A DNA stretch of 64,000 bases from a virus (Duplodnaviria > Heunggongvirae > Uroviricota > Caudoviricetes): the IMG/VR virus record IMGVR_UViG_3300036801_000212, positions 1-64,000 of that record; one strand, written 5' to 3'. Positions 10,415-61,747 of the stretch are shown here, one piece after another; the first letter of the stretch is position 1; the number at the start of each line of letters is the position of its first letter. The translations under genes and the position numbers were made by a program. The notes below the pieces were generated by a model. It was given only the letters and a program-made list of their open reading frames with translations. It did not search any database and was not told the origin of the DNA.

Positions 10415-10709
10415 GTGTGGTACCGCCTACTGCATGGCCGGTTGGGCTGTGGCTCTAGCCGGTTACGAGTTTTGCTGGCGCAGCGACGGCACCACAAGCA
10501 GTGTGATAACTGAACGCACCGCGACTTCGACCCACTGTGAACTCATCGAGGAGATCGCGACAGCTGTTCTAGGTCTTGACTTCCGCGACGCCGATGACCT
10601 TTTTCATTCACTCAACACCGTCGATGACCTGGAACTCATGGTGAAGAATCTCTCGAACGGAGAGCCGATCCGTGATGGCGTTCCGATGCGCATTGAAAAG
10701 GGTCTCTGA
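10323..10709 (+). CDS. tandem paralog family A, copy 1 (uncharacterised ~120-aa protein)
   Basis: Consensus N-term MAN[IVL]EK[LC]E.VL..I+.HPE.H[DN]Q..W......CGT..C.AGW and C-term DDLE[LR].VK[ND]I[SA]N shared by six consecutive genes. Confidence 0.6.
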   Translation: MANIEKLEAVLDHIKMHPESHNQEVWAEKTECGTAYCMAGWAVALAGYEFCWRSDGTTSSVITERTATSTHCELIEEIATAVLGLDFRDADDLFHSLNTVDDLELMVKNLSNGEPIRDGVPMRIEKGL

Positions 10710-11083
10710 TGGCGAACATCGAAAAGCTCGAGGCCGTCCTGGGTCAGATCAAGGCTCACCCGGAGCAGCACAATCAGCGGGAATGGGCGGAACGCAATGA
10801 GTGTGGGACTTCATATTGTCTCGCTGGCTGGGCAGTCGTTCTCGAAGGCCACGAAATCCTGTGGGACGAGGTCGCTGAAGGAGTCTACTGTGCCCTCGAC
10901 GAGAACGGAAATATTGACAGCATCAAGAGACTCGCTGGTCGCATTCTCGACTTGTCCCCGTATCAGCGAGCGCAGATATTTTACCGTTACAACACTGTCG
11001 ACGACATCGAACTGATGACGAAGAATCTCGCAAATGGAAATCCCATCCACGCTGACATTCCGGGGCGTAGGTTTACTTTCTGA
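10709..11083 (+). CDS. tandem paralog family A, copy 2
   Basis: Same consensus; TGATGG stop-start overlap with copy 1. Confidence 0.6.
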   Translation: MANIEKLEAVLGQIKAHPEQHNQREWAERNECGTSYCLAGWAVVLEGHEILWDEVAEGVYCALDENGNIDSIKRLAGRILDLSPYQRAQIFYRYNTVDDIELMTKNLANGNPIHADIPGRRFTF

Positions 11084-11463
11084 TGGCCAACGTCGAAAAG
11101 TGTGAAGAAGTCCTCCAGTTCATCAAGGACCACCCCGAGAAGCACGACCAGAGAACGTGGGGCTACAAGAGCGACTGCGGCACGACTGCATGTTTTGCCG
11201 GCTGGACTGCCGTTCTGAACGGATACGAGTTCTATTTCGGTAGGATGGTATTCGAAAGGTATTATTCCGGGGTGAAGTCATTGAAAACCGGTGTGCATAG
11301 TTCCACCTCCACCGCTGCAGCGGTGGTTCTCGAACTCACCTGCGACGAAGCAATGATGCTCTTCGATGGCGGCAACACCTTCGAAGAGCTTGAGCAGATG
11401 GTCAAAAACATCTCAAACGGTGACCCGATCGAACGCAACACCCGCCACGACGAGGAAGACTGA
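11083..11463 (+). CDS. tandem paralog family A, copy 3
   Basis: Same consensus (MANVEKCEEVLQFIKDHPEKHDQRTW...CGTTACFAGW). Confidence 0.6.
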   Translation: MANVEKCEEVLQFIKDHPEKHDQRTWGYKSDCGTTACFAGWTAVLNGYEFYFGRMVFERYYSGVKSLKTGVHSSTSTAAAVVLELTCDEAMMLFDGGNTFEELEQMVKNISNGDPIERNTRHDEED

Positions 11464-11801
11464 TGGCTAATCTAGCGAAGATCGAAGCTGTCCTGGATTA
11501 CATTCGCACCCATCCCGAGGAGCACGACCAGAACACTTTCGCCTACCGGAATGCTTGTGGCACCCAAATGTGCTTCGCGGGGACAGCTGTTCATCTTTCT
11601 GACCAGTACAAGATCGTGTGGAGTGGTCGGGAATCCGCGGGGTGTGTCGACGCGAACGGGAATCTTGAGTCCATGCCGGACGCTGCTACAGAGATTCTCG
11701 GTCTGACCGATCAGCAGTCTTTCCAGCTTTTCCACGTCGCGCGGAACCTCGACGACCTTGAGCGCGTGGTCAAAGACATCACCAACGAGCAGGTGGCGTG
11801 A
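11463..11801 (+). CDS. tandem paralog family A, copy 4
   Basis: Same consensus (MANLAKIEAVLDYIRTHPEEHDQ...CGTQMCFAG). Confidence 0.6.
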   Translation: MANLAKIEAVLDYIRTHPEEHDQNTFAYRNACGTQMCFAGTAVHLSDQYKIVWSGRESAGCVDANGNLESMPDAATEILGLTDQQSFQLFHVARNLDDLERVVKDITNEQVA

Positions 11802-12145
11802 TGGCCAATGTCGATCTTCTTTACAAAGTTCTGGATCACATCCGTGAAAATCAAGACCAGCACGATCAGTCCAGCTGGGCGCGGAAGACGGACTGTGGAT
11901 CTAGTTTCTGCTTCGCCGGCTGGACGGTACAGCTCAGTGACTACGAGATTGTCTGGAATCAGCGGTTTCAGCAGGAGGGAGCTGACTTCTGCACCGCCCC
12001 GGGTGGTGACTACTTTTACAGCATTGAGCACGTGGCCCAGTCGCTCCTTGGGCTCGACATCCTGCAGAAGCAAGCACTGTTCTTCACTTCACAGACCTTC
12101 GATGATGTCGAGTCTGTAGTCAAGGACATAGCGAATGAGGCCTGA
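11798..12145 (+). CDS. tandem paralog family A, copy 5
   Basis: Same consensus (MMANVDLLYKVLDHIRENQDQHDQ...CGSSFCFAGW). Confidence 0.6.
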   Translation: MMANVDLLYKVLDHIRENQDQHDQSSWARKTDCGSSFCFAGWTVQLSDYEIVWNQRFQQEGADFCTAPGGDYFYSIEHVAQSLLGLDILQKQALFFTSQTFDDVESVVKDIANEA

Positions 12146-12501
12146 TGGCTGACGTTGCGAAGTTGGAAGCGGTGTTGGACTACATCCGGATGCACCCGGA
12201 GGAGCATGACCAGGGCGATTGGGCGCGACGCACCGACTGTGGCACTACTTTGTGCTTCGCCGGGACTGCCGTAGTTCTGGCTGGGTACCAGCTCGACTGG
12301 ACTAACCACTCCGACAGGACGGGACGCTGTGTGACTTCAGCGGGTGACCCGCTCTCTTTGGCGGGGACAGCTTCTATCTCTGCCGTCGCCGCGCGGGAGC
12401 TGTGCTTGGCCCCTGAGCAGGTCGAAGCCCTCTTTTGGGCCGCTGACAGCCTCGATGACTTGGAACGTATAGTCAAAGACATCGCTAACGAGGCTGCCTA
12501 A
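12145..12501 (+). CDS. tandem paralog family A, copy 6
   Basis: Same consensus (MADVAKLEAVLDYIRMHPEEHDQ...CGTTLCFAG). Confidence 0.6.
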   Translation: MADVAKLEAVLDYIRMHPEEHDQGDWARRTDCGTTLCFAGTAVVLAGYQLDWTNHSDRTGRCVTSAGDPLSLAGTASISAVAARELCLAPEQVEALFWAADSLDDLERIVKDIANEAA

Positions 12502-14969: not shown

Positions 14970-15305
14970 TTGAATGAACGTCTCGCTCGGGAGATCGTCG
15001 CGGAAAGGGCGGACGGAATTTGCGAGCGCTGCCGAGGTGCAAGACAATCGAATTGTCACCATCGTAAGCCGCGGTCGCAGGGAGGGTTGTGGACGCCGTC
15101 CAATTTACTAGCGCTTTGTGGAAGTGGCACTACCGGATGTCACGGTGAGGTGGAGTCGCGGCGCACGGTGAGTTACGAACAGGGCTGGCTAGTTCGCCGA
15201 AATCACATCCCAGCCGATGTCCCGGTTTGGATGTTCGGATGGGGTTTCGTTCTACTCGATGACAGTGGCCAAATCATAAGATTGGATGACGATGACGTTT
15301 ACTAG
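14970..15305 (+). CDS. HNH endonuclease
   Basis: CERC...CHHRKPRSQGG...N...ALC..C H arrangement (HNH beta-beta-alpha metal finger). Confidence 0.7.
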   Translation: MNERLAREIVAERADGICERCRGARQSNCHHRKPRSQGGLWTPSNLLALCGSGTTGCHGEVESRRTVSYEQGWLVRRNHIPADVPVWMFGWGFVLLDDSGQIIRLDDDDVY

Positions 15306-15630
15306 ATACGCCCCACCACAGCAGGTAAGGATGGCCCTAGAGCCATACATAGCAAAGCTGAGTTCGTTCACCACCGCGGATGAGATCAGATCTTTCCTTC
15401 AAGACGAAGGTGTGAAAGGTAAGTGTAAGGCAGTAAGTGAATGCGCATTAGCCGAGTATATTCTCAGGGAGAGTGGGTATTCGGTTCACGTTGGCAAGTA
15501 CCAGATCGACAGTGTCCTTCCGATCAACGACAGAATGCCGTTTGGGAGACTGTGCAAAACGACGAATGCTATGCATGACTTTATCCGCATGTTCGATTAC
15601 GGTTTCTACCCGGAGTTGATGAAGAAGTGA
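15286..15630 (+). CDS. amplified family B, copy 1 (uncharacterised ~100-120-aa protein)
   Basis: Family consensus ..[LV]EPYI.KL..F.T.[ED]EIR.FL..EG[IV]KA.......CA[IL]AEY[IV].RE.G..V.V ... FI..FD.G[FY]YPEL. Confidence 0.55.
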   Translation: MTMTFTRYAPPQQVRMALEPYIAKLSSFTTADEIRSFLQDEGVKGKCKAVSECALAEYILRESGYSVHVGKYQIDSVLPINDRMPFGRLCKTTNAMHDFIRMFDYGFYPELMKK

Positions 15631-15942
15631 ACCTCGAAGATATGCGTCTGGCCGTGGAACCCCTATATAGGTAAGCTCGCGGGATTCAGTTCCGCGCAAG
15701 AAGTGAGAGAGTTCCTCGCCGGCGAAGGGGTGAAGGCGACACCGAAACAAGCCGACAGCTGCGCCATCGCTCACTATCTACACCGTGAGACTGAGCAGAT
15801 CGTCTCTGTTCACCATAATGGCGTCATGGTCTGGGAAAAGGCGCTCATGTTCAACGGCACGGAGGTTGCACAGCACACCGAGGCCACGCTCGACTTCATC
15901 AACCACTTCGACCAGGGCGACTACCCGGAGCTGGTTGCGTGA
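15627..15942 (+). pseudogene. amplified family B, copy 2, disrupted by +1 frameshift in a CCCC run (15660-15663)
   Basis: GTG 15627 reads VNLEDMRLAVEPLYR then stop; shifting one base restores EPYIGKLAGFSSAQEVREFLAGEGVKAT... through FDQGDYPELVA. Confidence 0.5.
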
Positions 15943-16241
15943 TGGAAATCGAAGAGCTGAAGCTGACGGTCGAACCTTACCTCAATAAACTTGCCGGATT
16001 CGATTCCCCAGATGAGATCGCAACGTTCCTCGCCGGCGAAGAAATCCAAGCCATCCCCGGGAAGGCCAAGTACTGTGCTATTGCGGAGTACTTCCATCGC
16101 GAAACCGGCCAAGAGTTTGACGTGAGCTACGACACCCTAAGGACCCTGGGATATGTGGGACTCGGTGAACACACGGATGCCATGCGTGCGTTTATTGAGC
16201 GATTCGACAACGGGTTCTATCCGGAGCTGGAGGCGAAGTAA
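15939..16241 (+). CDS. amplified family B, copy 3
   Basis: MMEIEELKLTVEPYLNKLAGFDSPDEIATFLAGEEIQA...CAIAEYFHRETGQ...FIERFDNGFYPELEAK. Confidence 0.55.
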   Translation: MMEIEELKLTVEPYLNKLAGFDSPDEIATFLAGEEIQAIPGKAKYCAIAEYFHRETGQEFDVSYDTLRTLGYVGLGEHTDAMRAFIERFDNGFYPELEAK

Positions 16242-16654
16242 TGGAGTACATCGACCCGGAGAAGCTGGCGGGGATTAGGCTGGATCACGGTGCGCATTCC
16301 ACTCGGGAAATGGGACTCTGCTTAATGGAGGCGGTTTCTTTTCTGGCTGGTGAGATGCATTCTGACCATCCGGAGTGCGTTTCCCGTATTCTCACGAGTT
16401 TTGGCATCTCGATCAACGACAGATGCACGAACGACCTGCGTCAGCAGCTTATCCCGCTCATCCCATCTTTGATTGGAACTCGGGGTGACGGCCTCGACGA
16501 AGAGCGACGCGAGATGGTAATTAACTCGTCAGTCGTGCAGGACACCTCCCCCTGTGGCACCCCTTTCACGAGCAGACTCCGGGGTCGCTTCGAAGAGGTA
16601 CTCCAGTTCTACACCGATCTCATCAAAGTCCCCGAGGCGAAGCGATGCAACTAA
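16241..16654 (+). CDS. family C, copy 1 (uncharacterised; paralog of N-terminal domain of 33463..34290)
   Basis: Shares GAHS..EMGLCLME.....AGE.HSD.P.CVS..L..FG.S.ND....DLRQ.L..LIPSL.GT..DG.DERR with 33463 gene. Confidence 0.5.
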   Translation: MEYIDPEKLAGIRLDHGAHSTREMGLCLMEAVSFLAGEMHSDHPECVSRILTSFGISINDRCTNDLRQQLIPLIPSLIGTRGDGLDEERREMVINSSVVQDTSPCGTPFTSRLRGRFEEVLQFYTDLIKVPEAKRCN

Positions 16655-17004
16655 ACGAAATCCGCACCATTGTTGAACCCTACATCGGGAAGTTGTCCGC
16701 TTTTCAAACCGCTGAAGATATTCGAGAGTTCCTCAAGGGGGAAGAGATTCTCGCCGAGGAGAGAAGGCCTATGCATTGCGCGATTGCGCAGTACATTCAC
16801 AAGGAAACCGGACAGGTGGTCCGCGTGGGACGGCGAGAAACTAAAGCAGCTTGTGAAGACGGAACTGAGCCGCTTATCTATTTCCCGACAGATAGCGACT
16901 TTCCGAAGATTGTGAAATTCGCGGAGGTTGGGAAACACACTTCGGCGATGACCACTTTTATCGACAACTTCGACGACGGATATTACCCGGAGCTGGTGAA
17001 ATAA
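16645..17004 (+). CDS. amplified family B, copy 4
   Basis: MQLNEIRTIVEPYIGKLSAFQTAEDIREFLKGEEI...CAIAQYIHKETGQ...FIDNFDDGYYPELVK. Confidence 0.55.
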   Translation: MQLNEIRTIVEPYIGKLSAFQTAEDIREFLKGEEILAEERRPMHCAIAQYIHKETGQVVRVGRRETKAACEDGTEPLIYFPTDSDFPKIVKFAEVGKHTSAMTTFIDNFDDGYYPELVK

Positions 17005-17339
17005 TGGACTTCGAAGACATCAGGCTCGCGGTTACACCCTATCTGGAGAAGCTGGCTGAATTTGAGACCGCGGAACAGATTCGGGACTTTCTCGTGGTCG
17101 AGGGGATTAAGGCCACGAGAGGAAACCCATACAGCTGTGCTATCGCGGAATACGTTTACCGTGGCAGTGAGGTGCCGGTGAGGGTGAGTAGCGGTTGGAC
17201 CTCAAGCGCCTCCGTCCTCAGCTCTGCGCCCCTCAGCTCTGCGCCCCTCATCTCTGCGCCCCTCGGATTGCACACGGACGCGATGTGCGAGTTCGTTGGC
17301 AACTTCGATCAGAATCATTACCCGGAACTTGTCGCGTGA
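17004..17339 (+). CDS. amplified family B, copy 5 (contains internal SSAPL x3 tandem repeat)
   Basis: MDFEDIRLAVTPYLEKLAEFETAEQIRDFL...CAIAEYVYRGSE...FVGNFDQNHYPELVA; 3 x 15-bp repeat ctcagctctgcgccc. Confidence 0.55.
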   Translation: MDFEDIRLAVTPYLEKLAEFETAEQIRDFLVVEGIKATRGNPYSCAIAEYVYRGSEVPVRVSSGWTSSASVLSSAPLSSAPLISAPLGLHTDAMCEFVGNFDQNHYPELVA

Positions 17340-24671: not shown

Positions 24672-24719
24672 CCGTAGACGCCATCTCGTTTTCGCTGACC
24701 AAAATGCGTAGCGCGCAAG

Positions 24720-25988
24720 CCCCCGGATTTATCCGTGGGGTTAGCGCATCAAGTGACAGCGCAGTCGGGTACGCTGTCACCCATGAGCGGTCGGGTGGTG
24801 AAGCGGGCGTACCGCTACCGCTTCTACCCGACCGACGATCAGGCTCAACAGCTCGCCCGCACCTTCGGTTGCGTCCGCTACGTCTACAACCGTGCCCTCG
24901 CCGAACGGTCCCGGGCGTGGACGCAGGAGCAGCGGCGGGTCACCCACGCGGAGACCGACAAGATGCTCACCGCATGGAAACGCGACCCGGAAACCGAGTG
25001 GCTCACCGAGCCGTCGAAAGGGCCTCTGCAGGCCACGCTGCGGAACCTACAGACCGCCTATGTCAACTTTTGGGGCAAGCGGGCGAAGTACCCGACGTTC
25101 AAGAAGCGCGGCAAGACGACCGACGCGGCAACGTACTTCCGGAACTGCTTCACCTTCCGCGAAGGCGTGCTCACACTGGCCAAGCAGGACCAGTCGCTGC
25201 GGATCGTGTGGTCGAGACCGTTGCCCGAGGGTGCGGCGCCGTCGCAGGTGACGGTGTCCCGGAACTCGCGGGGCCAGTACCACATCTCGATCCTGTGCGA
25301 GTCGATCGTGCACGACGGGCCGACCACGGGCACGTCGGTGGGTGTGGACGCCGGGATCACCTCGCTGGTGACCCTGTCCACCGGGGAAAAGATCACCAAC
25401 CCGAAGCACGAGAAACGGGATCGAGCCCGGCTCGCGCTCGTGCAACGGCGGTTGTCCCGGAAGGCGAAAGGCTCCGCGAACCGGACGAAGGCTCGGCTCA
25501 AGGTAGCGAAGATCCACGGCCGTATCCGCGACCGCAGGCTCGACGTCCTCCACAAATTATCGACTCGTCTCGTTCACGAGAACCAAGTGATCGTCATCGA
25601 GGACTTAGCAGTACGCAACATGGTGAAGAACCACAGCCTGGCCCGCTCAATCTCCGACGCGAGTTGGTCGGAGTTGCGGCGCCAACTGGAGTACAAGGCC
25701 GACTGGTACGGCCGGACCGTGATAGCCATCGACCGGTGGTATCCGTCGAGCAAAACATGCTCGACCTGTGGGGCGATCGTCGAATCTCTGCCGTTGAACA
25801 TCCGCGAGTGGACGTGCACCTGTGGCGCGACCCACGACCGGGATGTGAATGCGGCGCGCAACATACGAGCGCTCGGGCTGAGCGTGCTCGCCTCTGGAGA
25901 TGGTGTGAGACCGCCTCGCGTCTAGCGCGAGGAGGCAGCCGTTGATGAACGAGGAATCCCCCGGCTTCAGCCGTGGGGAGCAAGTCAA
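24720..25988 (+). mobile_element. IS200/IS605-family insertion sequence carrying tnpB only (IS1341-like), ~1.27 kb
   Basis: Left-end hairpin CCCCCGGATTTATCCGTGGGG (24720-24740) and right-end hairpin CCCCCGGCTTCAGCCGTGGGG followed by AGCAAGTCAA; same termini as second element at 40409-41705. Confidence 0.65.
24783..25925 (+). CDS. tnpB: TnpB (IS605 OrfB-family RNA-guided nuclease-like transposon protein)
   Basis: KRAYRYRFYPTDDQAQQLARTFGCVRYVYNRAL N-terminus, RuvC-like core, C-terminal Zn finger CSTCG...CTCG, NAARNI motif. Confidence 0.85.
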   Translation: MSGRVVKRAYRYRFYPTDDQAQQLARTFGCVRYVYNRALAERSRAWTQEQRRVTHAETDKMLTAWKRDPETEWLTEPSKGPLQATLRNLQTAYVNFWGKRAKYPTFKKRGKTTDAATYFRNCFTFREGVLTLAKQDQSLRIVWSRPLPEGAAPSQVTVSRNSRGQYHISILCESIVHDGPTTGTSVGVDAGITSLVTLSTGEKITNPKHEKRDRARLALVQRRLSRKAKGSANRTKARLKVAKIHGRIRDRRLDVLHKLSTRLVHENQVIVIEDLAVRNMVKNHSLARSISDASWSELRRQLEYKADWYGRTVIAIDRWYPSSKTCSTCGAIVESLPLNIREWTCTCGATHDRDVNAARNIRALGLSVLASGDGVRPPRV

Positions 25989-26373
25989 CGAATCGGTTCG
26001 GACGGACTGGCCGGAACTGGCGGACGCATTGGATGAGTTAGTGGGGTGCACAACTTTCTCACTGGACCGGATCGAGACCGCAGGAAACGCTGCCAAGATG
26101 CGGTTCAACTTTGGCGAGAAAGGTGAACCTACTGACGACATGTGGCGTGGTGTAGCTCGTGCCGTTGCCGAGGCGTTTGGATATAGGGAAGCGGCTGGAG
26201 TGATCGGAAGCTTGACGGCCGAGAACGAGAAGCTACTGACACGCGCTGAGCATGCCGAGTCCGAGCTAGCACGGACACGGGAAGAGCGCGACCGGTTCAA
26301 GCTCATTGCCGACCTGGCCATCGACTCGTGGAATCGTCTCGCCCGTTACCCGACGGAATACGAGAGTGAGTGA
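25942..26373 (+). CDS. hypothetical protein (N-terminal codons lie within IS right end)
   Basis: ORF; first ~15 codons coincide with IS right-end hairpin, so true start uncertain. Confidence 0.35.
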   Translation: MMNEESPGFSRGEQVNESVRTDWPELADALDELVGCTTFSLDRIETAGNAAKMRFNFGEKGEPTDDMWRGVARAVAEAFGYREAAGVIGSLTAENEKLLTRAEHAESELARTREERDRFKLIADLAIDSWNRLARYPTEYESE

Positions 26374-30207: not shown

Positions 30208-30390
30208 ATGAAAGACATAGCAAACTCACACATGCTGGGTTATGCACTCAGCGTAACCGCGATCGTCTTCACGGGATGGTATCTGGTCTCAGGTGACGTC
30301 AAGATTGAGTTCTCCGCAATTTGGTGGCAACTTACCCAACTCAACTTTTGGTTGTGGATTGTATCGCACGAGTGGTTGGAGACGAAGTGA
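30208..30390 (+). CDS. small membrane protein
   Basis: ATG after GGGGG; hydrophobic helices; Trp-rich. Confidence 0.4.
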   Translation: MKDIANSHMLGYALSVTAIVFTGWYLVSGDVKIEFSAIWWQLTQLNFWLWIVSHEWLETK

Positions 30391-31070
30391 GCGACCTGTT
30401 GTGGAAGGCGACCCGCCCGGATGGCACGACCCGGGGTGGTGTGCGGTGGACGGTCGGTGAGGTGACGACTCATCCCACTTCGACCGTGATGGTGCGGGAT
30501 CGTGCGGAAACGTATTTGTCGCTAAGTTCCGAGCCGGGCGAGACGCTGATCGGCGGCAGCTGGCCGTGCCGGCTTTTCAGAGTCGAACCGGTCGGCGACG
30601 TGACCACCTCGGACGAGCACGCGCACAAGCGGTGCGTGCTGGCGGCGCGGGTGGTGGAGGAGGTGCCGGCGCATCTGGCGCTTGGCCCGATGGGTGTGCA
30701 CGTCGCCGCGCTGATCGCCCGCGCGAAGACGCTCACGGAAGCGGAGGTACGGAATCTGGCCGCCGCCTGGTCCGCCGCCGGGTCCGCCGCCTGGTCCGCC
30801 GCCGGGCACGCCAGGCACGCCGCCGGGTCCGCCGCCTGGTCCGCCGCCCGGTACGCCGCCTGGTCCGCCGCCTGGTCCGCCGCCCGGTACGCCGCCCGGT
30901 GCGCCGCCCGGTGCGCCGCCGAGTCCGCCGCCGTGGCTCTTGTGGTGCGCGGCCTCATCGGTGCCCCCGGATGGGACCAGGCCGCCTACGACCTGCTGAC
31001 TGGAACCTGGGCACGGGTGATCGGCCCGGCGCACCCGGATGACGCGCCTGTCCGAGCATGGACGGAATGA
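30387..31070 (+). CDS. hypothetical protein with ATRPDG N-terminal motif and AAWSAAG low-complexity repeat tract
   Basis: GTGA overlap; LWKATRPDGTTRGGVRWTVGEV...; nucleotide-level tandem repeats gccgcctggtccgccgccggg between 30770 and 30930. Confidence 0.5.
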   Translation: MSDLLWKATRPDGTTRGGVRWTVGEVTTHPTSTVMVRDRAETYLSLSSEPGETLIGGSWPCRLFRVEPVGDVTTSDEHAHKRCVLAARVVEEVPAHLALGPMGVHVAALIARAKTLTEAEVRNLAAAWSAAGSAAWSAAGHARHAAGSAAWSAARYAAWSAAWSAARYAARCAARCAAESAAVALVVRGLIGAPGWDQAAYDLLTGTWARVIGPAHPDDAPVRAWTE

Positions 31071-31300: not shown

Positions 31301-31489
31301 ATGCGTATCGCTGGTCGTCGGATGCGGGCACGCGTATACAAACTGTCGGACGGCTGGTATTGGTGGTGTCCGAGTCCTTGCGCTCGCGGCGGGGATAAGG
31401 TCCGGACTTTTGACGGCGCCATGGAAGAGTTGTTGATACATTTTCGCGAGCATCGCGTGTTTGGTTTCCAGACTGGGAGGAAGAAGTAG
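31301..31489 (+). CDS. small hypothetical protein
   Basis: ATG directly after upstream TGA. Confidence 0.4.
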   Translation: MRIAGRRMRARVYKLSDGWYWWCPSPCARGGDKVRTFDGAMEELLIHFREHRVFGFQTGRKK

Positions 31490-32373
31490 TGCTCTGGTTC
31501 ATCATTGCGATGTTGGTGGCGTGCATCGCTGTCGTATTGATCGTGGTAGATAGGGGGTTGGAGTCCGGTCACGAGATGAAGAGCGCTGGGACCCTCGCCG
31601 GAATCTCCCTCTTGGTGATCGCTGCCGTCGTGACCCTCTGCGACATGGCCACCGCGGTCTCGGCGAATTCGGTGGGCATCGAAACCAAGTTCGGTCGGCC
31701 GGTTGGCACCTTGCAATCCGGTCTGCATTTCCTCGCGCCGTGGGCGGACGTACAAGAATTCAGTACGCGGGTGCAAGTGACCGACCGTCAGCAGAGCGCC
31801 CAAGGTGATGTGCCCGGTGCCGATTGCGTGCAAGTGAACTTGAAGGGCGGAGCGTCCGCGTGCGCTGATGTGGCGGTCCGGTACGTGATCAACCCGACTG
31901 ATGCGATTGACCTGTGGCGTCGGTATGGTGATTTCGACACGGTTCGGGACCGGTTGCTGCGAACGGCGACGGACAACGCGGCGAAGTTGGTTTACGGACA
32001 GTTTGACCCGCAGTCCGCAATCTCTGGGGATGCGTTGCCGCAGCTCACTGCCGGGTTGACCAAGGAGTTGACCAACCAGTTGGCATCTTCTGGGCTGACC
32101 TTGGTGGCTATCGCTCCCGGTCAACTGCATCTGTCACCGGACGTGCAGCAGCGGATCAACGACGTGCTCAACGCGGCCACCCAGACGCAGATCGCGCAGC
32201 AAACCCTGGCGCGCAACCAGGCGCAAGCGGCGGCCAACCAGGCGTTGCAGGGGTCACTGTCCCAGCAGGTGTTGATCCAGCAGTGCATCGAGGCGGCGAA
32301 GGAGATTCACCCAGCGGTTTTCGACTGTTGGCCTGGCAATGCCGCCACGCCACTCGTGAATGTGAGTCGGTGA
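31489..32373 (+). CDS. SPFH/band-7 (stomatin/prohibitin-like) membrane protein
   Basis: N-terminal TM helix, core IETKFGRPVGTLQSGLHFLAPWADV resembling band-7 GLHFK/PF motif, followed by Gln-rich coiled coil. Confidence 0.6.
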   Translation: MLWFIIAMLVACIAVVLIVVDRGLESGHEMKSAGTLAGISLLVIAAVVTLCDMATAVSANSVGIETKFGRPVGTLQSGLHFLAPWADVQEFSTRVQVTDRQQSAQGDVPGADCVQVNLKGGASACADVAVRYVINPTDAIDLWRRYGDFDTVRDRLLRTATDNAAKLVYGQFDPQSAISGDALPQLTAGLTKELTNQLASSGLTLVAIAPGQLHLSPDVQQRINDVLNAATQTQIAQQTLARNQAQAAANQALQGSLSQQVLIQQCIEAAKEIHPAVFDCWPGNAATPLVNVSR

Positions 32374-33462: not shown

Positions 33463-34290
33463 GTGAGTATTTACGACTATGACGCCTACTACCTGACCGA
33501 TCTAGCCAAGGGCGCCCACAACAGCCCAGACGAAGGGTTGTGCCTGATGGAGTTGACGGCGATGTTCGCCCGGGAGCAGCACTCTGACAGTCCGCGGTGT
33601 GTGTCACCCGTGTTGGGCGAATTCGGCCGGAGCTTGAACGATGTGTTGCCGGACGGTCTGCGGCAGGAGTTGAAGGGACTGATCCCGTCGCTGCCCGGTA
33701 CTGCAAACGATGGCTGGGATGAGCGGCGGAGCTTTATGGCGTTGGATTGGCTGATCCGGACGTGGCTGCCGGCGTGGCTGGACCTTTCGCCTCAGTGCCG
33801 CGAGGGCGCCCGGAGGGTGCGTGAACTGGGTCGGATCGTTGACTTGGTTTCAGCTGAGCGTGCCGGATCGATCGTGCGGGAGGCGCAGAAGGGCGCGGCT
33901 GCCGCTCGGGCTGCCGTTCGGGATGCCGCTTGGAATGCCGCTTGGAATGCCGCTCGGGATGCCGCTGGGGATGCCGCTAGCGCTGCCGCTCGGGCTGCCG
34001 CTTGGGATGCCGCTCGGGATGCCGCTCGGGCTGCCGCTCGGGCTGCCGCTCGGGCTGCCGCTGGGGATGCCGCTCGGGATGCCGCTTGGGCTGCCGCTTG
34101 GGATGCCGCTGGCGCTGCCGCTTGGGATGCCGCTTGGGATGCCGCTTGGGATGCCGCTGGCGCCGCCGCTTGGGATGCCGCTCGGGATGCCGCTGGGGCT
34201 GCCGCTGGGGCAGCTTTAAGTCCCACGGTTCATGGGTTGCAGCTATCTGCAATCGATCTGTTCGCCGAGATGATTAAGAACCCGCGGTGA
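33463..34290 (+). CDS. family C copy 2 fused to AAW[DN]AA low-complexity repeat tract
   Basis: N-terminal ~110 aa paralogous to 16241..16654; C-terminal repeats encoded by tandem gatgccgct(c/t)gg(g/a) units 33900-34200. Confidence 0.5.
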   Translation: MSIYDYDAYYLTDLAKGAHNSPDEGLCLMELTAMFAREQHSDSPRCVSPVLGEFGRSLNDVLPDGLRQELKGLIPSLPGTANDGWDERRSFMALDWLIRTWLPAWLDLSPQCREGARRVRELGRIVDLVSAERAGSIVREAQKGAAAARAAVRDAAWNAAWNAARDAAGDAASAAARAAAWDAARDAARAAARAAARAAAGDAARDAAWAAAWDAAGAAAWDAAWDAAWDAAGAAAWDAARDAAGAAAGAALSPTVHGLQLSAIDLFAEMIKNPR

Positions 34291-34685: not shown

Positions 34686-35918
34686 ATGATCAATCCTCAA
34701 TGGGTTGCCGATGCCACCGGAGTTGTATCTCTGGTGGCTATCGTGCTTGCCTTGGTGGCGGCGGCGAGGGTGAAATCTTTAACCCGGGTGTTCGGGATCG
34801 AACTGTATTCGGTCCATCGGTGGCTGGGGATCATCTCCGTTCTGGGGGTGGTAGGTCATATCGTTTTTGTTCTTCTGATGTCCAGTTCGAATCTTGGAAA
34901 ACTGTTCATCTGGGACGGAACGTTAGCTTCGAAAGCCGCTGATGTCTCAACGTATTCTTTGATTGCTTTGCTTCTCTGGCGACAGAAACAAAACTACGAG
35001 CAGTGGCGACGGTGGCATCTTGTTTTAGCTTCCGCTGTTGCCTTGGCGGGCTTTATTCACATCATTCTGTTGGCGCATCTTATAAAGCACACATCTTTCG
35101 CCGGCTCAATCACGGTTCTAGGGTGTGTTGTTGTGATAGCCGCTTTCTATAGACTGACCTCTTCACCTTATTCCGTGATAGGTGTACATCCAGAATCCCC
35201 CACTGTTTCCACCGTGACCTTAGCTCCGAAATGCGGTAAGCATCGTCCCACGCAGAGAAGGAAACGATTCCAACCGGGACAGTTCGGGTGGTTACGTCTC
35301 CATGGACAGCCAGGGAACGATCATCCTTATTCTTTCTCATCCTCGGCGAACAACAGTCAAGAGATACAGGTAACGGTAAGAAAGACCGGGAACTTCACCG
35401 ACAAGTTAACAGATTCTGTCCCCGGAAGAACCATCTGGGTGGATGGTCCCCACGGGAGTTTCTCCCCACCAGACTCCGCGCCAGGATTAGTTCTGATCGG
35501 AGCCGGAGTAGGGATGACACCGATGATGTCCATTCTTAGAACCTGCGCGGATCAACAAGACACGCGATCTATCAGGTTGATACAGTCCGCCGAATCCCCC
35601 GAAGAATTGTTATACTTCGAGGAGGTGAATCAACTTCCGTTGAATCTGGAGATCACGAGAGTGATAACTCGACCCCGCCCAGGGTGGGTGGGGAAAGTGG
35701 GGAGGATTGACATTGCGTTGTTGCATCAAGTTCTCCCGGGGAGACCGGTGAGAGAAAACCAAAGTTTCTTCCTCTGCGGGCCTCCGATGATGGTGGTTGA
35801 TACGGAATGCGCCTTGGTTTCCCTTGGTATCCCCGCGATAAATATCCACACCGAAAGATTCAACATGTCCCCCACGAAAGGTAAACCTAAACACGCATTG
35901 GAGGTAGAGCGTGGATAA
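34686..35918 (+). CDS. ferric-reductase/NOX-like transmembrane flavohaemoprotein (ferric reductase TM domain + FAD/NAD(P)H-binding FNR-like domain)
   Basis: Six hydrophobic helices with His pairs (HRWLG..H, HIIL..H); FNR-type motifs HPYSF (FAD), GPHG, LIGAGVGMTP (NAD), FLCGP; region AT-richer than surroundings. Confidence 0.75.
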   Translation: MINPQWVADATGVVSLVAIVLALVAAARVKSLTRVFGIELYSVHRWLGIISVLGVVGHIVFVLLMSSSNLGKLFIWDGTLASKAADVSTYSLIALLLWRQKQNYEQWRRWHLVLASAVALAGFIHIILLAHLIKHTSFAGSITVLGCVVVIAAFYRLTSSPYSVIGVHPESPTVSTVTLAPKCGKHRPTQRRKRFQPGQFGWLRLHGQPGNDHPYSFSSSANNSQEIQVTVRKTGNFTDKLTDSVPGRTIWVDGPHGSFSPPDSAPGLVLIGAGVGMTPMMSILRTCADQQDTRSIRLIQSAESPEELLYFEEVNQLPLNLEITRVITRPRPGWVGKVGRIDIALLHQVLPGRPVRENQSFFLCGPPMMVVDTECALVSLGIPAINIHTERFNMSPTKGKPKHALEVERG

Positions 35919-38700: not shown

Positions 38701-38772
38701 AGAGCGGGATGGCGCAGTAGTAGCGCGTTGGGCTCATATCCCAAAGGTCGTGGGTGCGACTCCCACTCCCGC
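38701..38772 (+). tRNA. tRNA-Met (anticodon CAU; could alternatively be lysidine tRNA-Ile)
   Basis: Cloverleaf folded by hand: acceptor AGCGGGA/TCCCGCC (1:72 A-C mismatch), D-stem GCGC/GCGC, anticodon stem TTGGG/CCCAA loop CTCATAT, T-arm GTGGG-TGCGACT-CCCAC; no encoded CCA. Confidence 0.7.
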
Positions 38773-38824
38773 CACGTGTCACGCCCGGACAATGGGTTCC
38801 TCACGGTTCGCCCGTCCGGGTTAT

Positions 38825-38899
38825 CTGCTCGTGGGCCAATCTGGTTAAGCCACTGCTTTTGGGAAGCAGACAGTGGAAGTTCGAATCTTCCCGAGCAGA
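38825..38899 (+). tRNA. tRNA-Pro (anticodon UGG)
   Basis: Acceptor CTGCTCG/CGAGCAG perfect, anticodon stem CTGCT/AGCAG loop TTTGGGA, T-arm GGAAG-TTCGAAT-CTTCC; discriminator A, no encoded CCA. Confidence 0.75.
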
Positions 38900-39493: not shown

Positions 39494-40195
39494 ATGACCT
39501 GCTCCCGTCCTTGGCGTTCTACCGCTCGCAAGAATCAAATCCCACCTGAGGGTGACTGGCTTGTGTTCTTGATGTGTTTCGGCAGGGGCGCGGGAAAAAC
39601 GTGGGCCGCATCAAACTGGATCGCCGAGCAAGCCGCTGCTCGTCCAGGCACGCACTGGGCTATCGTGGCACCTACCTGGCGCGATCTACGACTAGTCTGC
39701 ATCGAGGGCAGTTCAGGCATCCTCAGGGCTCTCCAGTCGGGCGAACTTGACAGCTTCAACCATAGCGACATGAGTGTGCGTTTGAAGAATGGCTCACAGA
39801 TTCACGGCTACTCCAACGATGGGGTCGAACGCATCACCGGTCAGTACGCCGGCGCGTGGATCGAGGAGCTTCGCGGCATGGAGAACGCGGAGAAGATGTG
39901 GCGTGAGCATCTCCTCCCGACGATGGCGAAGATGGTTCAGCCGAGAGTTTTTGTGACCACCACACCAGAGAATCCCGATCTCCCACTGGAGTGTCCAACG
40001 CAGGGTCCGTTCCGGCCGAATGCTCTGCAGAAGACTTTCATGAACGACACCAGTGGCATGGTGGCCAAGGTCCTCGGTAGCACCTGGGACAATGTGGAGA
40101 ATCTGTCACCTTGCGCGGTTGAGGAGTTGAAGAAGCGCTACGGCAACACTCTCGCGGGCCGTACTCAGCTTGAGGGTATCTCTCTCCCCATGTGA
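39494..40195 (+). CDS. terminase large-subunit-like ATPase domain only (no nuclease domain)
   Basis: Walker A FGRGAGKTWAAS, Walker B YAGAWIEEL, terminase-type coupling motif VFVTTTPENPD; ORF ends 200 nt before IS element. Confidence 0.6.
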   Translation: MTCSRPWRSTARKNQIPPEGDWLVFLMCFGRGAGKTWAASNWIAEQAAARPGTHWAIVAPTWRDLRLVCIEGSSGILRALQSGELDSFNHSDMSVRLKNGSQIHGYSNDGVERITGQYAGAWIEELRGMENAEKMWREHLLPTMAKMVQPRVFVTTTPENPDLPLECPTQGPFRPNALQKTFMNDTSGMVAKVLGSTWDNVENLSPCAVEELKKRYGNTLAGRTQLEGISLPM

Positions 40196-40408
40196 ATAAC
40201 TGGTAGGCTCAAGCTACATCCCAGGTGATGCGGATCGCCTGAGCTGGCACGGTTGTCGGCCATACCGTGAGGATTAGGGAGTGTCGGGTAATCGACCAGG
40301 TCCAGGGACAGCCAGCAAAAGCCACCGGTTCCGGTCATCACAGCAAGGCCGGCTTCTGGAACCAACGGTATCCGCACCCTAACTTCACCCGAGAAAGCTC
40401 CGAGGAAG

Positions 40409-41705
40409 CCCCCGGATTTATCCGTGGGGAGGAATCGGAGTGCCGTGCCTTACTCATGTCGTGCCCTCTGGTAAAGTGGATGTCGTGAGGACGGCGTACA
40501 AGGTTCGTGCCTACCCCGACACTGAGCAGGCGACGCTGCTGCGTCGCACCTTCGGGTGTGTGCGCCTGGTATGGAACAAGACCCTCGCCGATCGGCAATG
40601 CCGCTACACCGTCGAGCAGCGCAGCACTCCGTATAAGGAGACTGACGCCGCCCTCGCTGCGTGGAAACACACCGACGAGCTGGCGTTTCTGTCCGAGGTG
40701 TCCTCGGTTCCGTTGCAGCAGACGTTGCGGCATCAGCACACCGCGTTCCAAAACTTCTTCGCCAAACGAGGCCGCTACCCGAAGTTCAAGTCCCGCAACT
40801 CGCGCCAGTCCGCGCACTACACCCGGTCGGCGTTCCGCATCAAACCCGATGGATTGTGGCTGGCTAAAACCACTGCGCCGTTGAAAGTGGCGTGGTCGTG
40901 GCCCGACATTGACATGACCGGACTCGACCCGACGATGGTCATCGTCAGCGTCGAACCCGACGGCCGCTGGTACGTCACCTTCGCCGTGGACGTTTCCGCT
41001 CCGGCTCCGCTGCCCGCCGTCGGCGAGACGGTCGGAGTCGACGTCGGGTTGAAGGACTTCGCTGTCCTGTCCACCGGGGAGCGCATCGCCAACCCACGGC
41101 ATCTAGCCAAGCGCGCCCGGAACTTGGCCCGCTACCAGCGACGCATGACCCGCTGTAAGCGTGGCTCCGCGAACCGAGCCAAGGCCAAACTGAAGGTCGC
41201 TCGGGCACACTCGAAGGTCCGCGCTGCACGAAACGACTTCCTGCACAAGACCAGCACCACATTGGTCCGCCGGTTCGATCGGGTCGGCATCGAAGATCTG
41301 AACGTATCCGGCATGGTCCGCGATCACCCGCTCGCCAAGGCGATTTCCGACGTTGGGTGGGGCGAGTTCCGGTCCATGCTCGAATACAAGGCGCAACGCG
41401 CCGGACGTCAGATGATCGCCATCGACCGCTGGTACCCGTCGAGCAAGACATGCAGTTCGTGTGGCCACCTGCTGACCTTCCTTTCCCTTGGTACGCGTCA
41501 GTGGACGTGTCCCGGATGCGGCACCCGACATGATCGGGACTTGAACGCCGCGAAGAACATCGATACGGCGGCCGGGCTGGTCGCTGCTGCCTCCGGAGGG
41601 CCGGTGAGACCTGTGCAGGCAACTGCTGGGCACGGCCCAGCGAAAGAGGAACCCCGACTCGTGAGGGTTGGAATCCCCCGCCTTTAGGCGTGGGGAGGAA
41701 GTCAA
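40409..41705 (+). mobile_element. second IS200/IS605-family tnpB-only element, ~1.3 kb
   Basis: Left-end hairpin CCCCCGGATTTATCCGTGGGG identical to first element; right-end hairpin CCCCCGCCTTTAGGCGTGGGG followed by AGGAAGTCAA. Confidence 0.65.
40485..41687 (+). CDS. tnpB: TnpB (diverged paralog of 24783..25925)
   Basis: RTAYKVRAYPDTEQATLLRRTFGCVRLVWNKTL; RuvC-like motifs; CSSCG...CPGCG Zn finger; NAAKNI. Confidence 0.85.
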   Translation: MRTAYKVRAYPDTEQATLLRRTFGCVRLVWNKTLADRQCRYTVEQRSTPYKETDAALAAWKHTDELAFLSEVSSVPLQQTLRHQHTAFQNFFAKRGRYPKFKSRNSRQSAHYTRSAFRIKPDGLWLAKTTAPLKVAWSWPDIDMTGLDPTMVIVSVEPDGRWYVTFAVDVSAPAPLPAVGETVGVDVGLKDFAVLSTGERIANPRHLAKRARNLARYQRRMTRCKRGSANRAKAKLKVARAHSKVRAARNDFLHKTSTTLVRRFDRVGIEDLNVSGMVRDHPLAKAISDVGWGEFRSMLEYKAQRAGRQMIAIDRWYPSSKTCSSCGHLLTFLSLGTRQWTCPGCGTRHDRDLNAAKNIDTAAGLVAAASGGPVRPVQATAGHGPAKEEPRLVRVGIPRL

Positions 41706-41824
41706 GTAGACCTCTACACTGAGCCGAGAGACGGTCCCGTTCTTGTTGAGCACATCCGCTTTCCCCTCGAATTCTGAAGAGAAACCCCCGAAGTTTCTGA
41801 AGAAGGAATCGTGAGTCCCTGCGC

Positions 41825-42112
41825 ATGAGAAAGAGTTTCGGCTTCTACTACACCCGCGAAGACGAGGTACGTCTTCGGATCCGAGAGTATCCGTGGCGCT
41901 GGCACTTTCTTGCTTACGCAGCTGACGTCGTCTGCGCCATGACTCGTCACCGACTGTGTAACAGTCTTGTTTCGTGGGCTTATGACAAGGCCGATGGCCA
42001 CGTGGGCTACAAGGAAGAGTTCCCCGCCTCGAAGGAACAATGGGTGGAGTTCGCTAAGGCTACCGGCGGCGAGGACCCTTCGTGGTGGTGGACTGAAGAA
42101 GAGGAATCGTGA
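41825..42112 (+). CDS. hypothetical protein
   Basis: ORF; Trp-rich acidic C-terminus. Confidence 0.45.
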   Translation: MRKSFGFYYTREDEVRLRIREYPWRWHFLAYAADVVCAMTRHRLCNSLVSWAYDKADGHVGYKEEFPASKEQWVEFAKATGGEDPSWWWTEEEES

Positions 42113-42537
42113 AGATTTACCGCGAACATAACGTCGGCTACTCCTGTAGAGGTTTCGCACTCTTCATCACGGAATTCCCTATGCACCGTTGGGCTTTGGG
42201 TGAGGTCGGATACAACCTTATCGGACGTTTGAGGTGTTCCGAACTTTCCCACCGTGCGTTGAATGCGATCATCGACTGGCAGCATAAATACACGTTCACT
42301 GTGGCGGAAATTCCGTTGACGACGGAACAAGCGTTGATTCTATGTCCCAGCTATGAGGACGAGATCGAACCTGAGGGTTGGATCACAGTTAACGGCGCTG
42401 ATGAGCATGGGGATATCTACGAGGACGCGGCGTTGACCGTCGCTAGGTGTAGGGAATGTGGTCAGATGCTCCCCGCGAATGGTCGTTGGTGGCAGAAGAT
42501 CATTGATGAACACCGACCTTTTTGCGCGGCGAGTTGA
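42109..42537 (+). CDS. hypothetical protein
   Basis: GTGA overlap; ORF. Confidence 0.5.
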   Translation: MKIYREHNVGYSCRGFALFITEFPMHRWALGEVGYNLIGRLRCSELSHRALNAIIDWQHKYTFTVAEIPLTTEQALILCPSYEDEIEPEGWITVNGADEHGDIYEDAALTVARCRECGQMLPANGRWWQKIIDEHRPFCAAS

Positions 42538-58228: not shown

Positions 58229-58516
58229 CTACCTTTGCTCCTTCGTCAACTGCGCATCGATCGAGGCAAGCTGGTCGAGAAGTCGCTGACGTTCCGCCAT
58301 TAGCACGGTTTCTTCGTTGAGCATGTCGGCGAGCGACTTGCCAAGGACGTGCGAGATCGCTACGGCCAAGTTGAGTCGGATAGATCGGTTCCCCTTCTCG
58401 ATCTTCGTGATGGCGGTCGGGTCTAGCCCTACTTTCTCTGCCAGCGTGGACTGACTGAGTCCCTGCTGCTCACGGCTTGCGCGCAGCACGGCGGCGAACA
58501 CCTGCTCTGGCTCCAT
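58229..58516 (-). CDS. XRE-family HTH regulator (Cro/CI-like)
   Basis: LSQSTLAEKVGLDPTAITKIEKGNRSIRLNLAVAISHVL. Confidence 0.6.
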   Translation of the reverse strand: MEPEQVFAAVLRASREQQGLSQSTLAEKVGLDPTAITKIEKGNRSIRLNLAVAISHVLGKSLADMLNEETVLMAERQRLLDQLASIDAQLTKEQR

Positions 58517-58577
58517 CTACGCTCTCCAGGCTTGATAAATCGTGGCACGGTCCCTTCAGCGGCCGAGCATGGGCCGT

Positions 58578-58769
58578 TTAATCTTCGGGTCGATGGCTGC
58601 GCGGCATTCCATCCAATATATTCAGTATGGTGGTAATTGTCTCGCCTTGAGTGCGTTGGGTAGCTTCTAGGTGTTCGATCCGCTCCCGTAGTTCAGCGAC
58701 GATTGTGGCGTGGCGACCATCGCGAATTAATTTAACCGCTTTCCACGCGCTCATCAACGTTAGCTCCAA
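58578..58769 (-). CDS. small hypothetical protein
   Basis: Minus-strand ORF between regulator and recombinase. Confidence 0.4.
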   Translation of the reverse strand: MELTLMSAWKAVKLIRDGRHATIVAELRERIEHLEATQRTQGETITTILNILDGMPRSHRPED

Positions 58770-58797
58770 TATGTCGGGTCGGGTAGGGTGTGTCTGG

Positions 58798-59358
58798 TCA
58801 CTGCTGCTTCTGTAGCGCTCGGTAGATGGTAGCGCGGCTCACCTCCAAGGCTCCGGCGATCTCCTCGACCTGGTAGTCGTCACTGGCCATCATCGCACGT
58901 GCCAGCCTCACCTGATCTGGAGACAGCTTGGCCTTCCGACCGAGTTGCTTCCCGCTCCTCCTGGCCGTCCTTAAACCTTCATGGGTGCGCTCGACAATTA
59001 ACTCTCTCTCGAACTCCGCGAGAGCGCCTAGGATGGTGTAAAACATCCTCCCAATAGCAGTGTTGGTGTCAATCCCCTGATCCAAGATTCTTAAAGCTAT
59101 CCCACGCTCGGATAAATCCGCCGACAATTCCAGAAGATGCTTCACTGACCTCCCGGCTCTATCGAGTTTGGTCACAACCAAAGTGTCGCCTTGACGCAGA
59201 TATCCTAGACACGCGTCCCACTCTGGCCTTGACGCCAGCTTCCCCGATACTGCTTCGTCGGTGAAAACTTTTTCGCAGCCACACTCTTTCAAACGTGACA
59301 CCTGGTCTAGGACGTTCTGTTTGTCGGTTGAGCATCTTCCGTAGCCTATGAGTGCCAT
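58798..59358 (-). CDS. small serine recombinase (resolvase/invertase family)
   Basis: N-terminal MALIGYGRCSTDKQ (catalytic Ser), resolvase core, C-terminal HTH VEEIAGALEVSRATIYRAL. Confidence 0.8.
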   Translation of the reverse strand: MALIGYGRCSTDKQNVLDQVSRLKECGCEKVFTDEAVSGKLASRPEWDACLGYLRQGDTLVVTKLDRAGRSVKHLLELSADLSERGIALRILDQGIDTNTAIGRMFYTILGALAEFERELIVERTHEGLRTARRSGKQLGRKAKLSPDQVRLARAMMASDDYQVEEIAGALEVSRATIYRALQKQQ

Positions 59359-59361
59359 GGT

Positions 59362-59739
59362 TTACCCTCGATGATGTCGATGGTGATGTTTGTGGTGTTT
59401 GCGATGGTGATGTCTAACGTGGTGATGGTGCGTCTTATGTCCTTGAGCATGGCTGGTATGAGCAGAAACGTCGTGAAGTCGCCGCGAATGTAGAGAAACT
59501 CGAACGGCTCGCGCATGCCGCCGAATGCTGGTGTACACCGATCGCTTGCCTGACCGACGATGATCGAGCTTAGCTGGAATCCCATGGGCGGAGACCGGCA
59601 GCGTGTGAGCGGTTGGTGAATTTGTAGGTTGGATATCGTGTTGGGTAGTGGTTCCACTCGTTAAGAGGAGGAACACACCGACCAACATAGTTCCTACCGC
59701 TATAGCTAGTTTGTTTCTGGGTTGACTGTGCCGGCCCAT
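59362..59739 (-). CDS. secreted/membrane-anchored His-rich protein (third His-rich protein in window)
   Basis: N-terminal hydrophobic helix LAIAVGTMLVGVFLLLTSG; C-terminal HKTHHHHVRHHHRKHHKHHHRHH. Confidence 0.5.
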   Translation of the reverse strand: MGRHSQPRNKLAIAVGTMLVGVFLLLTSGTTTQHDIQPTNSPTAHTLPVSAHGIPAKLDHRRSGKRSVYTSIRRHARAVRVSLHSRRLHDVSAHTSHAQGHKTHHHHVRHHHRKHHKHHHRHHRG

Positions 59740-59820
59740 GGCTCCTCCTCTCTATGTAAAAGCGACACGCCGCATTTGAACTCACCAACTGCCCAGGTTC
59801 ACGAAGTAGCCTAAACCAGT

Positions 59821-60321: not shown

Positions 60322-60422
60322 CGAAAACTCTCCATTTCGCAAACAAGCAAAGGCCCGCTCATCGATCGGCGACAGTGCAGCCGTCTACAGTTCTTGACTT
60401 CCGTAGGCGACCGTGCTGACCC

Positions 60423-61514: not shown

Positions 61515-61579
61515 GACACCTCCTATTTGTTGATCACTCAGGCTGCATCACCGACAGTCGATGACACAGACTCAAACGA

Positions 61580-61747
61580 TCAATCCGTGTGTTCGGCGAG
61601 GTAGTTTAATTCCTCCGCCGTGAGGTACAGCCGCACGTCAACCCGAAACGTGCCAGCGTAATGACCTTTGTCGCAGTAGTGATTCTGCGGTGCGAGGTTC
61701 ACTGCCTCGGCCAGCTTGCGGTAGATACCGCGCTCTGTGGTTTCCAT
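61580..61747 (-). CDS. small hypothetical protein (55 aa)
   Basis: Minus-strand ATG after GGGAGAGGAAAGAG; not in 60-aa track. Confidence 0.35.
   Translation of the reverse strand: METTERGIYRKLAEAVNLAPQNHYCDKGHYAGTFRVDVRLYLTAEELNYLAEHTD

Follow-up and report, generated by a model that had tools for sequence, protein, structure and literature searches.

The 64,000-nt stretch of DNA analysed here (positions 1 to 64,000 of the IMG/VR virus record IMGVR_UViG_3300036801_000212, hereafter the window) contains two insertion sequence (IS) elements, both intact and both intergenic, which are TnpB-only members of the IS200/IS605 family (IS1341 type). Element 1 (24701–25988, + strand) is 1288 bp long with a GC content of 63.9% and lies 29 nt past the stop codon of a RusA gene, while element 2 (40390–41705, + strand) is 1316 bp long with a GC content of 63.4%; the elements are thus at 63–64% GC, against 57% for the window. 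The gene tnpB1 (24783–25925, + strand; 1143 of the 1288 bp of element 1) encodes 380 amino acids from an ATG at 24783, a start set by its homologues. The gene tnpB2 (40485–41687, + strand; 1203 of the 1316 bp of element 2), identified with Pfam and NCBIfam, encodes 400 amino acids from a GTG at 40485, which is the most likely start, its homologues being 400 amino acids long and starting with MRTAYK; the mechanically called open reading frame (ORF) begins at 40440.

A sequence-only reading of the window had assigned both genes to TnpB-only IS200/IS605 elements, an identity borne out by the TnpB models of Pfam and NCBIfam and by a PDB match. Both ORFs contain the three TnpB domains HTH_OrfB_IS605, OrfB_IS605 and Cas12f1-like_TNB (PF12323, PF01385 and PF07282, respectively) and score 358.6 bits (TnpB1) and 337.9 bits (TnpB2) with the NCBIfam model guided_TnpB (NF040570; cut-off 100), while both stay under the cut-offs of the strict IS200_TnpB and IS607_TnpB "exception" models. 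TnpB1, the protein queried, matches the ISDra2 TnpB structures 8h1j, 8bf8, 8ex9 and 8exa at about E = 1e-72 over residues 6–368. The RuvC residues D189, E273 and D354 (TnpB1 numbering) and the zinc-ribbon cysteines are invariant in an alignment of ten sequences, which comprises the two window proteins and eight homologues. The two proteins share 48% identity over their whole length, in agreement with their earlier description as diverged paralogs. Homologues of each number in the thousands, the best named ones coming from Frankia, Parafrankia, Pseudonocardia, Nocardia, Micromonospora and Rhodococcus, and a "transposase" encoded by Mycobacterium phage SwagPigglett (P0211) shares 69% identity with TnpB2. 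A TANNNT hexamer lies 7 nt 5′ of each tnpB start (TACGCT, 24770–24775; TAAAGT, 40472–40477), with a comparable hexamer 6–7 nt upstream in two related loci (L012 and L018), which suggests a possible −10 box of a leaderless tnpB mRNA. On the antisense strand of tnpB2 (40672–41266, − strand), the Rfam family RF02743 (Sernc389, the Saccharopolyspora 'sRNA 389') matches over its full 595-nt model with 165 bits, and what the family describes seems to be no more than a tnpB coding region read in antisense.

As no close relative of the surrounding genome was found, the ends of the elements were set from copies of close homologues in differing flanks. Window positions 24696–25988 recur without a gap, at 98.6% identity, in a Logan contig of 1349 nt (L028) that is unrelated to the window outside them, so that element 1 was recently present in a second genomic context. 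A TnpB 81% identical to TnpB1 (P0024) occurs in two flank contexts, and one 80% identical to TnpB2 (P0135) is found next to no fewer than three left and four right flanks, phage-like in many cases. What the contexts share always runs from TGACC in family 1, or from TCACC in family 2, to GTCAA, and for this reason element 1 is delimited as 24701–25988 after TGACC and element 2 as 40390–41705 after TCACC. The target of element 1, which is also its predicted transposon-adjacent motif (TAM), is TGACC (core TGAC; 24696–24700, + strand): the window and three other loci (L028, L012 and L013) are alike only from TGACC on, their upstream flanks differing, and TGACC is found at the same distance in two more (L031 and L032). 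The corresponding motif of element 2 is TCACC (core TCAC; 40385–40389, + strand), from which on the window and three left flanks of P0135 copies (L018, L024 and L026) are alike. Upstream of the elements, TGACC stands in four family-1 flank contexts and TCACC in four family-2 contexts. There is no target-site duplication, as the flanks on either side of an element do not repeat each other, and no inverted repeat is formed by the termini (AAAATG.../...GTCAA and CGAGAA.../...GTCAA). The elements had earlier been taken to begin at a hairpin, a placement that has to be corrected: the true left termini (24701 and 40390, ±1) lie 19–20 nt further upstream.

The hairpins in question start at 24720, 25958, 40409 and 41675, all on the + strand, and are subterminal at both ends of both elements, each having a stem of 8 bp with a bulged T and a loop of 4 nt, either TTTA or TTCA. 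A degenerate pattern of this hairpin matches the window six times, as compared with 0.69 matches expected, and none of 100 shuffles reached six. Four of the six matches are the element ends, while the other two (35673, and 37072 on the minus strand with one mismatch) flank no tnpB; the match at 35673 was rejected as an element end and regarded as chance, as it falls within a ferric-reductase-like gene and lacks a TCAA. At both left ends, CCCCCGGATTTATCCGTGGGG follows AAG as had been noticed (24720–24740 and 40409–40429). In element 1 the left-end DNA guide CAAG (24716–24719) precedes the hairpin CCCCCGGA-TTTA-TCCG(T)GGGG (24720–24740; feature 24716–24740, + strand), and in element 2 the guide GAAG (40405–40408) precedes the same hairpin (40409–40429; feature 40405–40429, + strand), which is surrounded there by an outer stem CTCCGA / TCGGAG. 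Element 1 contains a second left-end inverted repeat, GTGACAGCG...CGCTGTCAC (24753–24780, + strand), which was identified by folding and has similar counterparts in two relatives (L012 and L029); the entire 82-nt left end, subterminal hairpin included, folds with z = −4.8. The right ends carry the related hairpins that had been described. In element 1, GAAT (25954–25957) is followed by the hairpin CCCCCGGCTTCAGCCGTGGGG (25958–25978), then AGCAAGTCAA, with the TCAA terminus at 25985–25988 (+ strand), and in element 2, GAAT (41671–41674) is followed by the hairpin CCCCCGCCTTTAGGCGTGGGG (41675–41695), then AGGAAGTCAA, with TCAA at 41702–41705 (+ strand). The likeness of this terminus to the TCAA of IS608 holds beyond the window, as GTCAA or GCCAA closes 61 of 62 aligned homologues, the remaining one being gapped at the G.

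The order of the motifs is the same in the two elements, namely T(G/C)AC-C, 15 nt, (C/G)AAG and hairpin at the left end, and GAAT, hairpin, 6 nt and TCAA at the right end. The left tetranucleotide covaries with the target, CAAG occurring with TGAC in element 1 and GAAG with TCAC in element 2. Among the related loci, the base at TAM position 2 and the one that precedes the hairpin foot by 4 nt change together: the latter is C wherever the target is TGA(C/T)C, and G in most elements whose target is TCA(C/T)C. This comparison is limited to loci with an unambiguous left hairpin, as automatic detection mis-registered several. The DNA-guide principle has been confirmed for the family, and covariation of TAM and transposon-encoded motifs (TEM) with the DNA guides, together with its functional importance, has been described by Meers et al. 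2023 (PMC10055086). In both elements of the window the motifs are placed so that the cleavage sites may be recognised via complementary tetranucleotides 5′ of the hairpins.

The two elements had been described as sharing near-identical terminal hairpins, and their left ends do have an exact 24-mer in common, composed of AAG and the hairpin (24 of 24 nt). The identity is confined to this 24-mer, and the hairpin is not peculiar to the pair. In the left hairpin, each family's nearest relatives differ in stem or loop. The exact 24-mer of the window's left ends, AAGCCCCCGGATTTATCCGTGGGG, is present in seven IMG/VR contigs (L001–L007), where it lies at the right end of a tnpB in the four contigs with a tnpB detected by tblastn (L001, L005, L006 and L007; about 29–36% amino acid identity). 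The motifs that follow it in these contigs vary (TTAC, TCAA, TCAC and TGAC), and two of the contigs (L002 and L005) appear AT-rich around the match. The 24-mer is read as a widely reused hairpin, probably constrained by TnpA or by the omega-RNA.

Structural selection on the ends and an omega-RNA scaffold within them, both of which had been put forward from the two copies, are backed by covariation. For this purpose 80 related loci were fetched from bacterial genomes and their right ends located, and the last 220 nt of 60 fetched elements (57 from the scan plus L012, L018 and L028) were aligned with the two window copies to give 62 sequences. RNAalifold predicts 32 pairs in these 3′ ends, 25 of which have compensatory changes. 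In a structure of 29 pairs, 95.7% of the cells are standard pairs, compared with 31–56% when the partners are slid by 1–3 columns; double changes are seen in 25 pairs, compared with 10–15 in the slid versions, and the covariation score is 0.517, compared with at most 0.134, while none of 500 shuffles reaches the observed values. G-U pairs are frequent on the sense strand, which fits an RNA transcribed in the direction of tnpB. Nearly all pairs are held by the window copies (copy 1 has one mismatch and copy 2 has two gapped pairs), and single-sequence folds of both copies recover the helices. The final 120–140 nt or so of each element, which take in the right end and overlap the tnpB 3′ end, are thus predicted to be the omega-RNA scaffold.

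In element 1 the predicted scaffold (25870–25988, + strand), delimited by homologue alignment, covariation and folds, comprises helices at 25870–25884, 25891–25896/25946–25954, 25899–25904/25938–25943 and 25911–25920/25926–25935. In element 2 (41569–41705, + strand) the same helices are joined by a penultimate hairpin (41655–41670), which is usual in relatives and is missing from element 1 as well as from L012, L032, L072 and some proteobacterial relatives. The predicted guides, placed by their position beside the right ends and given this role in line with the known family mechanism (PMC10055086), are CGAATCGGTTCGGACG for element 1 (25989–26004, + strand), which occurs once in the window, and GTAGACCTCTACACTG for element 2 (41706–41721, + strand), whose sole other match in the window has three mismatches. 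The right end of element 1 had also been said to supply the first codons of a downstream ORF. An ORF (25942–26373) does begin there, but the extension is most likely incidental, a by-product of RNA structure, because its ATG sits in a strand of an omega-RNA helix, ATGAACGAGG in this right end forming the 3′ strand of the long-range helix that pairs 25946–25954 with 25891–25896.

Among known systems, IS608 of Helicobacter pylori has subterminal hairpins whose 8-bp stem carries a bulged T before GGGG and is closed by a 4-nt loop, pairs AAAG with TTAC at its left end and GAAT with TCAA at its right end, and carries both tnpA and tnpB; the details of its ends and their cleavage were reportedly worked out by Ton-Hoang (2005), Barabas (2008) and Guynet (2009). 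The elements of the window share with it the same orientation of the hairpins at both ends, the stem, loop and bulged T, and the distances to the cleavage sites, about 19–20 nt upstream of the left hairpin and 10 nt downstream of the right one. The right pairing GAAT:TCAA is also the same, while the left pairing is swapped at one position, from T:A to G:C in element 1 and to C:G in element 2. They differ from IS608 in the target, which is TTAC there and T(G/C)AC(C) here, and in being TnpB-only. ISDra2 of Deinococcus radiodurans, whose TAM is TTGAT, has a strongly similar TnpB with the same domain order and RuvC triad, and its scaffold likewise extends over the tnpB 3′ end as well as the right end and takes its guide from the flank, as is predicted here; unlike the present elements, it has its own tnpA.

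The Geobacillus stearothermophilus elements (ISGst) display TAM and TEM motifs, covarying DNA guides, peel-and-paste transposition by TnpA and TnpB homing at the donor joint (PMC10055086), but their motifs (TTTAT/TTCAT and TTCAC) are unlike those found here, and they reside on a bacterial chromosome with TnpA available. IS1341-group 'transposase' genes have been noted in actinophages, namely the Propionibacterium freudenreichii phages E6 and Anatole and the Mycobacterium phage SwagPigglett (PMC5831693); these are likewise TnpB-only, but their ends were left undefined, whereas ends, targets and guide RNA are defined here. The sense-overlapping transcripts (sotRNAs) and HgcC (RF00062) carry, close to the RNA 3′ end, an 8-bp stem capped by a UUCA or UUUA tetraloop (PMC4615843), to which the right-end hairpin is alike. 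Element 2 has a weak Rfam match to HgcC at 41623–41717, which is explained by the UUCA-tetraloop hairpin common to the sotRNAs of IS1341 elements and HgcC; at 17 bits, compared with a gathering threshold of 50, it is not a member of this Rfam family. Assignment to the IS607 family was rejected, as the score with the IS607_TnpB model, about 200 bits, falls short of the cut-off of 350 and the sole serine recombinase of the window (58798–59358, minus strand) lies at least 17 kb from either element.

The two elements very probably represent two independent insertions of non-autonomous IS200/IS605 TnpB-only elements into a phage-like actinobacterial genome. The kind of system is already known, all hallmarks of such an element that can be tested in silico being present, and the understanding of the IS200/IS605 family is unchanged by them. 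For the two elements themselves, the boundaries, target motifs, end hairpins, guide/target covariation, intact TnpBs and a covariation-backed RNA scaffold are established. From the mechanism of the family we infer mobilisation by TnpA in trans, expression of the omega-RNA and cleavage of the empty allele by TnpB. A Y1 (HUH) TnpA, most likely provided by the host or another element, would excise and insert the top strand by peel-and-paste, locating the cleavage sites by tetranucleotide pairing of CAAG or GAAG with TGAC or TCAC at the left end and of GAAT with TCAA at the right end. Insertion would take place 3′ of T(G/C)AC(C) without target duplication. TnpB with its omega-RNA, the guide being the 16–20 nt of flank past TCAA, would then cut copies of the locus that lack the element and offer TAM and guide match, and recombinational repair off the occupied copy would restore the element, amounting to homing or retention. 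The predicted uninterrupted alleles are ...TTTTCGCTGAC(C)CGAATCGG... for site 1 and ...AACTTCAC(C)GTAGACC... for site 2.

Several results weigh against this interpretation of two mobile insertions. Pattern searches for empty sites (site 1 in metagenomes, site 2 in IMG/VR and the site of the P0135 relative in metagenomes) found none, so that a 1-nt ambiguity of the left boundary remains, the C after TGAC or TCAC being either base 5 of the target or base 1 of the element. Close relatives of the host genome were not found either, as megablast against INPHARED gave one 36-nt match only, exact-protein look-ups with the flanking-gene proteins found nothing, and tblastn and IMG/VR gave distant relatives only; excision and homing at these exact loci are therefore extrapolated from the family. 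The single-sequence folds of the two scaffolds have modest z-scores (−1.6 and −1.9), and target base 4 and guide base 4, which mostly covary, do not do so in two loci (L044 and L055). No mobilising TnpA was found in the window: the Y1_Tnp domain of Pfam is absent from the 137 ORFs called by longest-ORF selection, a scan that leaves ORFs in alternative frames or on the opposite strand outside, and a crude regular expression for the HUH...Y motif has no match in six frames. The elements are for this reason regarded as non-autonomous and in need of TnpA in trans. The missing TnpA and empty sites, together with the orientation of both tnpB genes, which is that of the neighbouring genes, would also suit tnpB genes that have been domesticated by the phage and no longer move, co-opted perhaps as an RNA-guided nuclease or a regulator, with the hairpins as relics. 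This is quite improbable, as both ends of each element are complete and follow the rules of TAM, guide and TCAA, the 98.6%-identical copy lies in other flanks and close homologues occupy several contexts, the catalytic residues are intact, and the GC content is above that of the surrounding genome. Fixed tnpB genes devoid of both detectable empty sites and end hairpins, which the sequence-only reading had named as the finding that would speak against mobile elements, are not what the comparison reveals, the same or very similar elements lying in unrelated flanks.

It is scarcely to be believed that the hairpins are intrinsic terminators or repetitive extragenic palindromic (REP)-like repeats flanking the genes by chance. 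They are indeed GC-rich stem-loops in intergenic DNA, but no T-run follows them, the tnpB-flanking occurrences are the four element ends, and homologous hairpins with compensatory changes occupy the same positions in 60 elements of other genomes. Short-patch gene conversion between the two copies, as opposed to independent selection by a common TnpA, would account for a left-end motif that is identical over 24 of 24 nt, including the uncommon loop context ATTTAT, while the nearest relatives of each family have different hairpin sequences. It is nevertheless an unlikely source of the identity, as the seven viral contigs with the exact 24-mer are unrelated and carry it at the right ends of distant tnpBs where these were detected, and L028, from another genome, already carries it. 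The neighbourhood of element 2 raises a further alternative, since the element was correctly placed some 200 nt (194 nt) past a terminase-like ORF (39494–40195) that matches only the ATPase domain Terminase_6N of Pfam. The homology of this ORF to full-length TerL ends exactly at the linker between ATPase and nuclease domains (...QLEG), and relatives in IMG/VR (L008 and L010) have inteins in TerL, as if element 2 lay within an IStron-type, intron-like insertion that splits the TerL gene and is removed by splicing to restore it. However, Rfam detects no group I or II intron in 39900–42300 (E up to 10) or in the whole window (gathering thresholds), and none of group I at the 5′ side of the element. 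Homology to the nuclease domain was found nowhere in the 64 kb by tblastn or Pfam, the stop codon of the ORF lies well ahead of the target site, and in another large actinophage, Microbacterium phage Cece, TerL nuclease and ATPase are annotated as separate genes, the ATPase-domain gene standing alone. A split terminase is thus very improbable, and the idea was rejected for want of both intron and nuclease exon.

Beyond the interpretation as two independent insertions, it is possible, though only tentatively proposed, that the TnpB/omega-RNA units serve mainly as RNA-guided nucleases for homing or exclusion when phages co-infect a host. Sibling genomes with the uninterrupted sequence TGACC+CGAATCGG... 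or TCACC+GTAGACC... would be cut and the element copied in by recombination. The identical or near-identical TnpBs in several phage-like contexts and the lack of a TnpA in the window are compatible with such a role, which, if true, would mean that TnpB-only elements spread in actinophage populations with little or no need of TnpA. The practical value lies in annotation, the window providing two cleanly bounded TnpB/omega-RNA elements for which TAMs (TGAC(C) and TCAC(C)) and guides are predicted and a scaffold is backed by covariation, and thereby explaining the nature and ends of "transposase" genes in actinophage genomes. The naturally shortened scaffold of element 1, which is without the penultimate hairpin, could help when high-GC actinobacteria and their phages are searched for compact RNA-guided nucleases.

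The genes surrounding the elements are phage-like and largely concerned with DNA metabolism, including RNA ligases, WhiB, a Gp3-like recombination directionality factor, an SSB protein, a ParB-methylase, DnaB, RusA and methylases, together with two tRNAs (38703–38774 and 38825–38899). Virion structural genes were not recognised in the 64 kb, and the nearest database relatives of the window show distant protein similarity only; the DNA may come from an actinophage of very large size or from some other mobile element.

Small paralogous genes form two tandem arrays (10709–12501 and 15286–17339), the first with about five copies sharing the conserved N-terminus MAN(I/V)EKLEAVL...HP(E)QHDQ and the second with several copies containing EPY(I/L)xKLxxF...YPEL; these genes have no match to Pfam or to an annotated PHROG. 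The ferric-reductase-like membrane protein encoded at 34686–35918 (Ferric_reduct and NAD_binding_1) is an unusual accessory gene for a phage-like context, and a Band_7/SPFH protein is encoded at 31489–32373. Two ORFs (30321–31070 and 33463–34290) end in long low-complexity tracts of (A)AWDAARDAA / AAWSAA, and the N-terminal part of the latter resembles the ORF at 16241–16654. One block of the window (58229–62571) is on the minus strand, all the rest being on the + strand, and its genes encode an HTH_3 protein, the small serine recombinase mentioned above (Resolvase and HTH_7) and a RuvB-like AAA+ protein (60423–61514).

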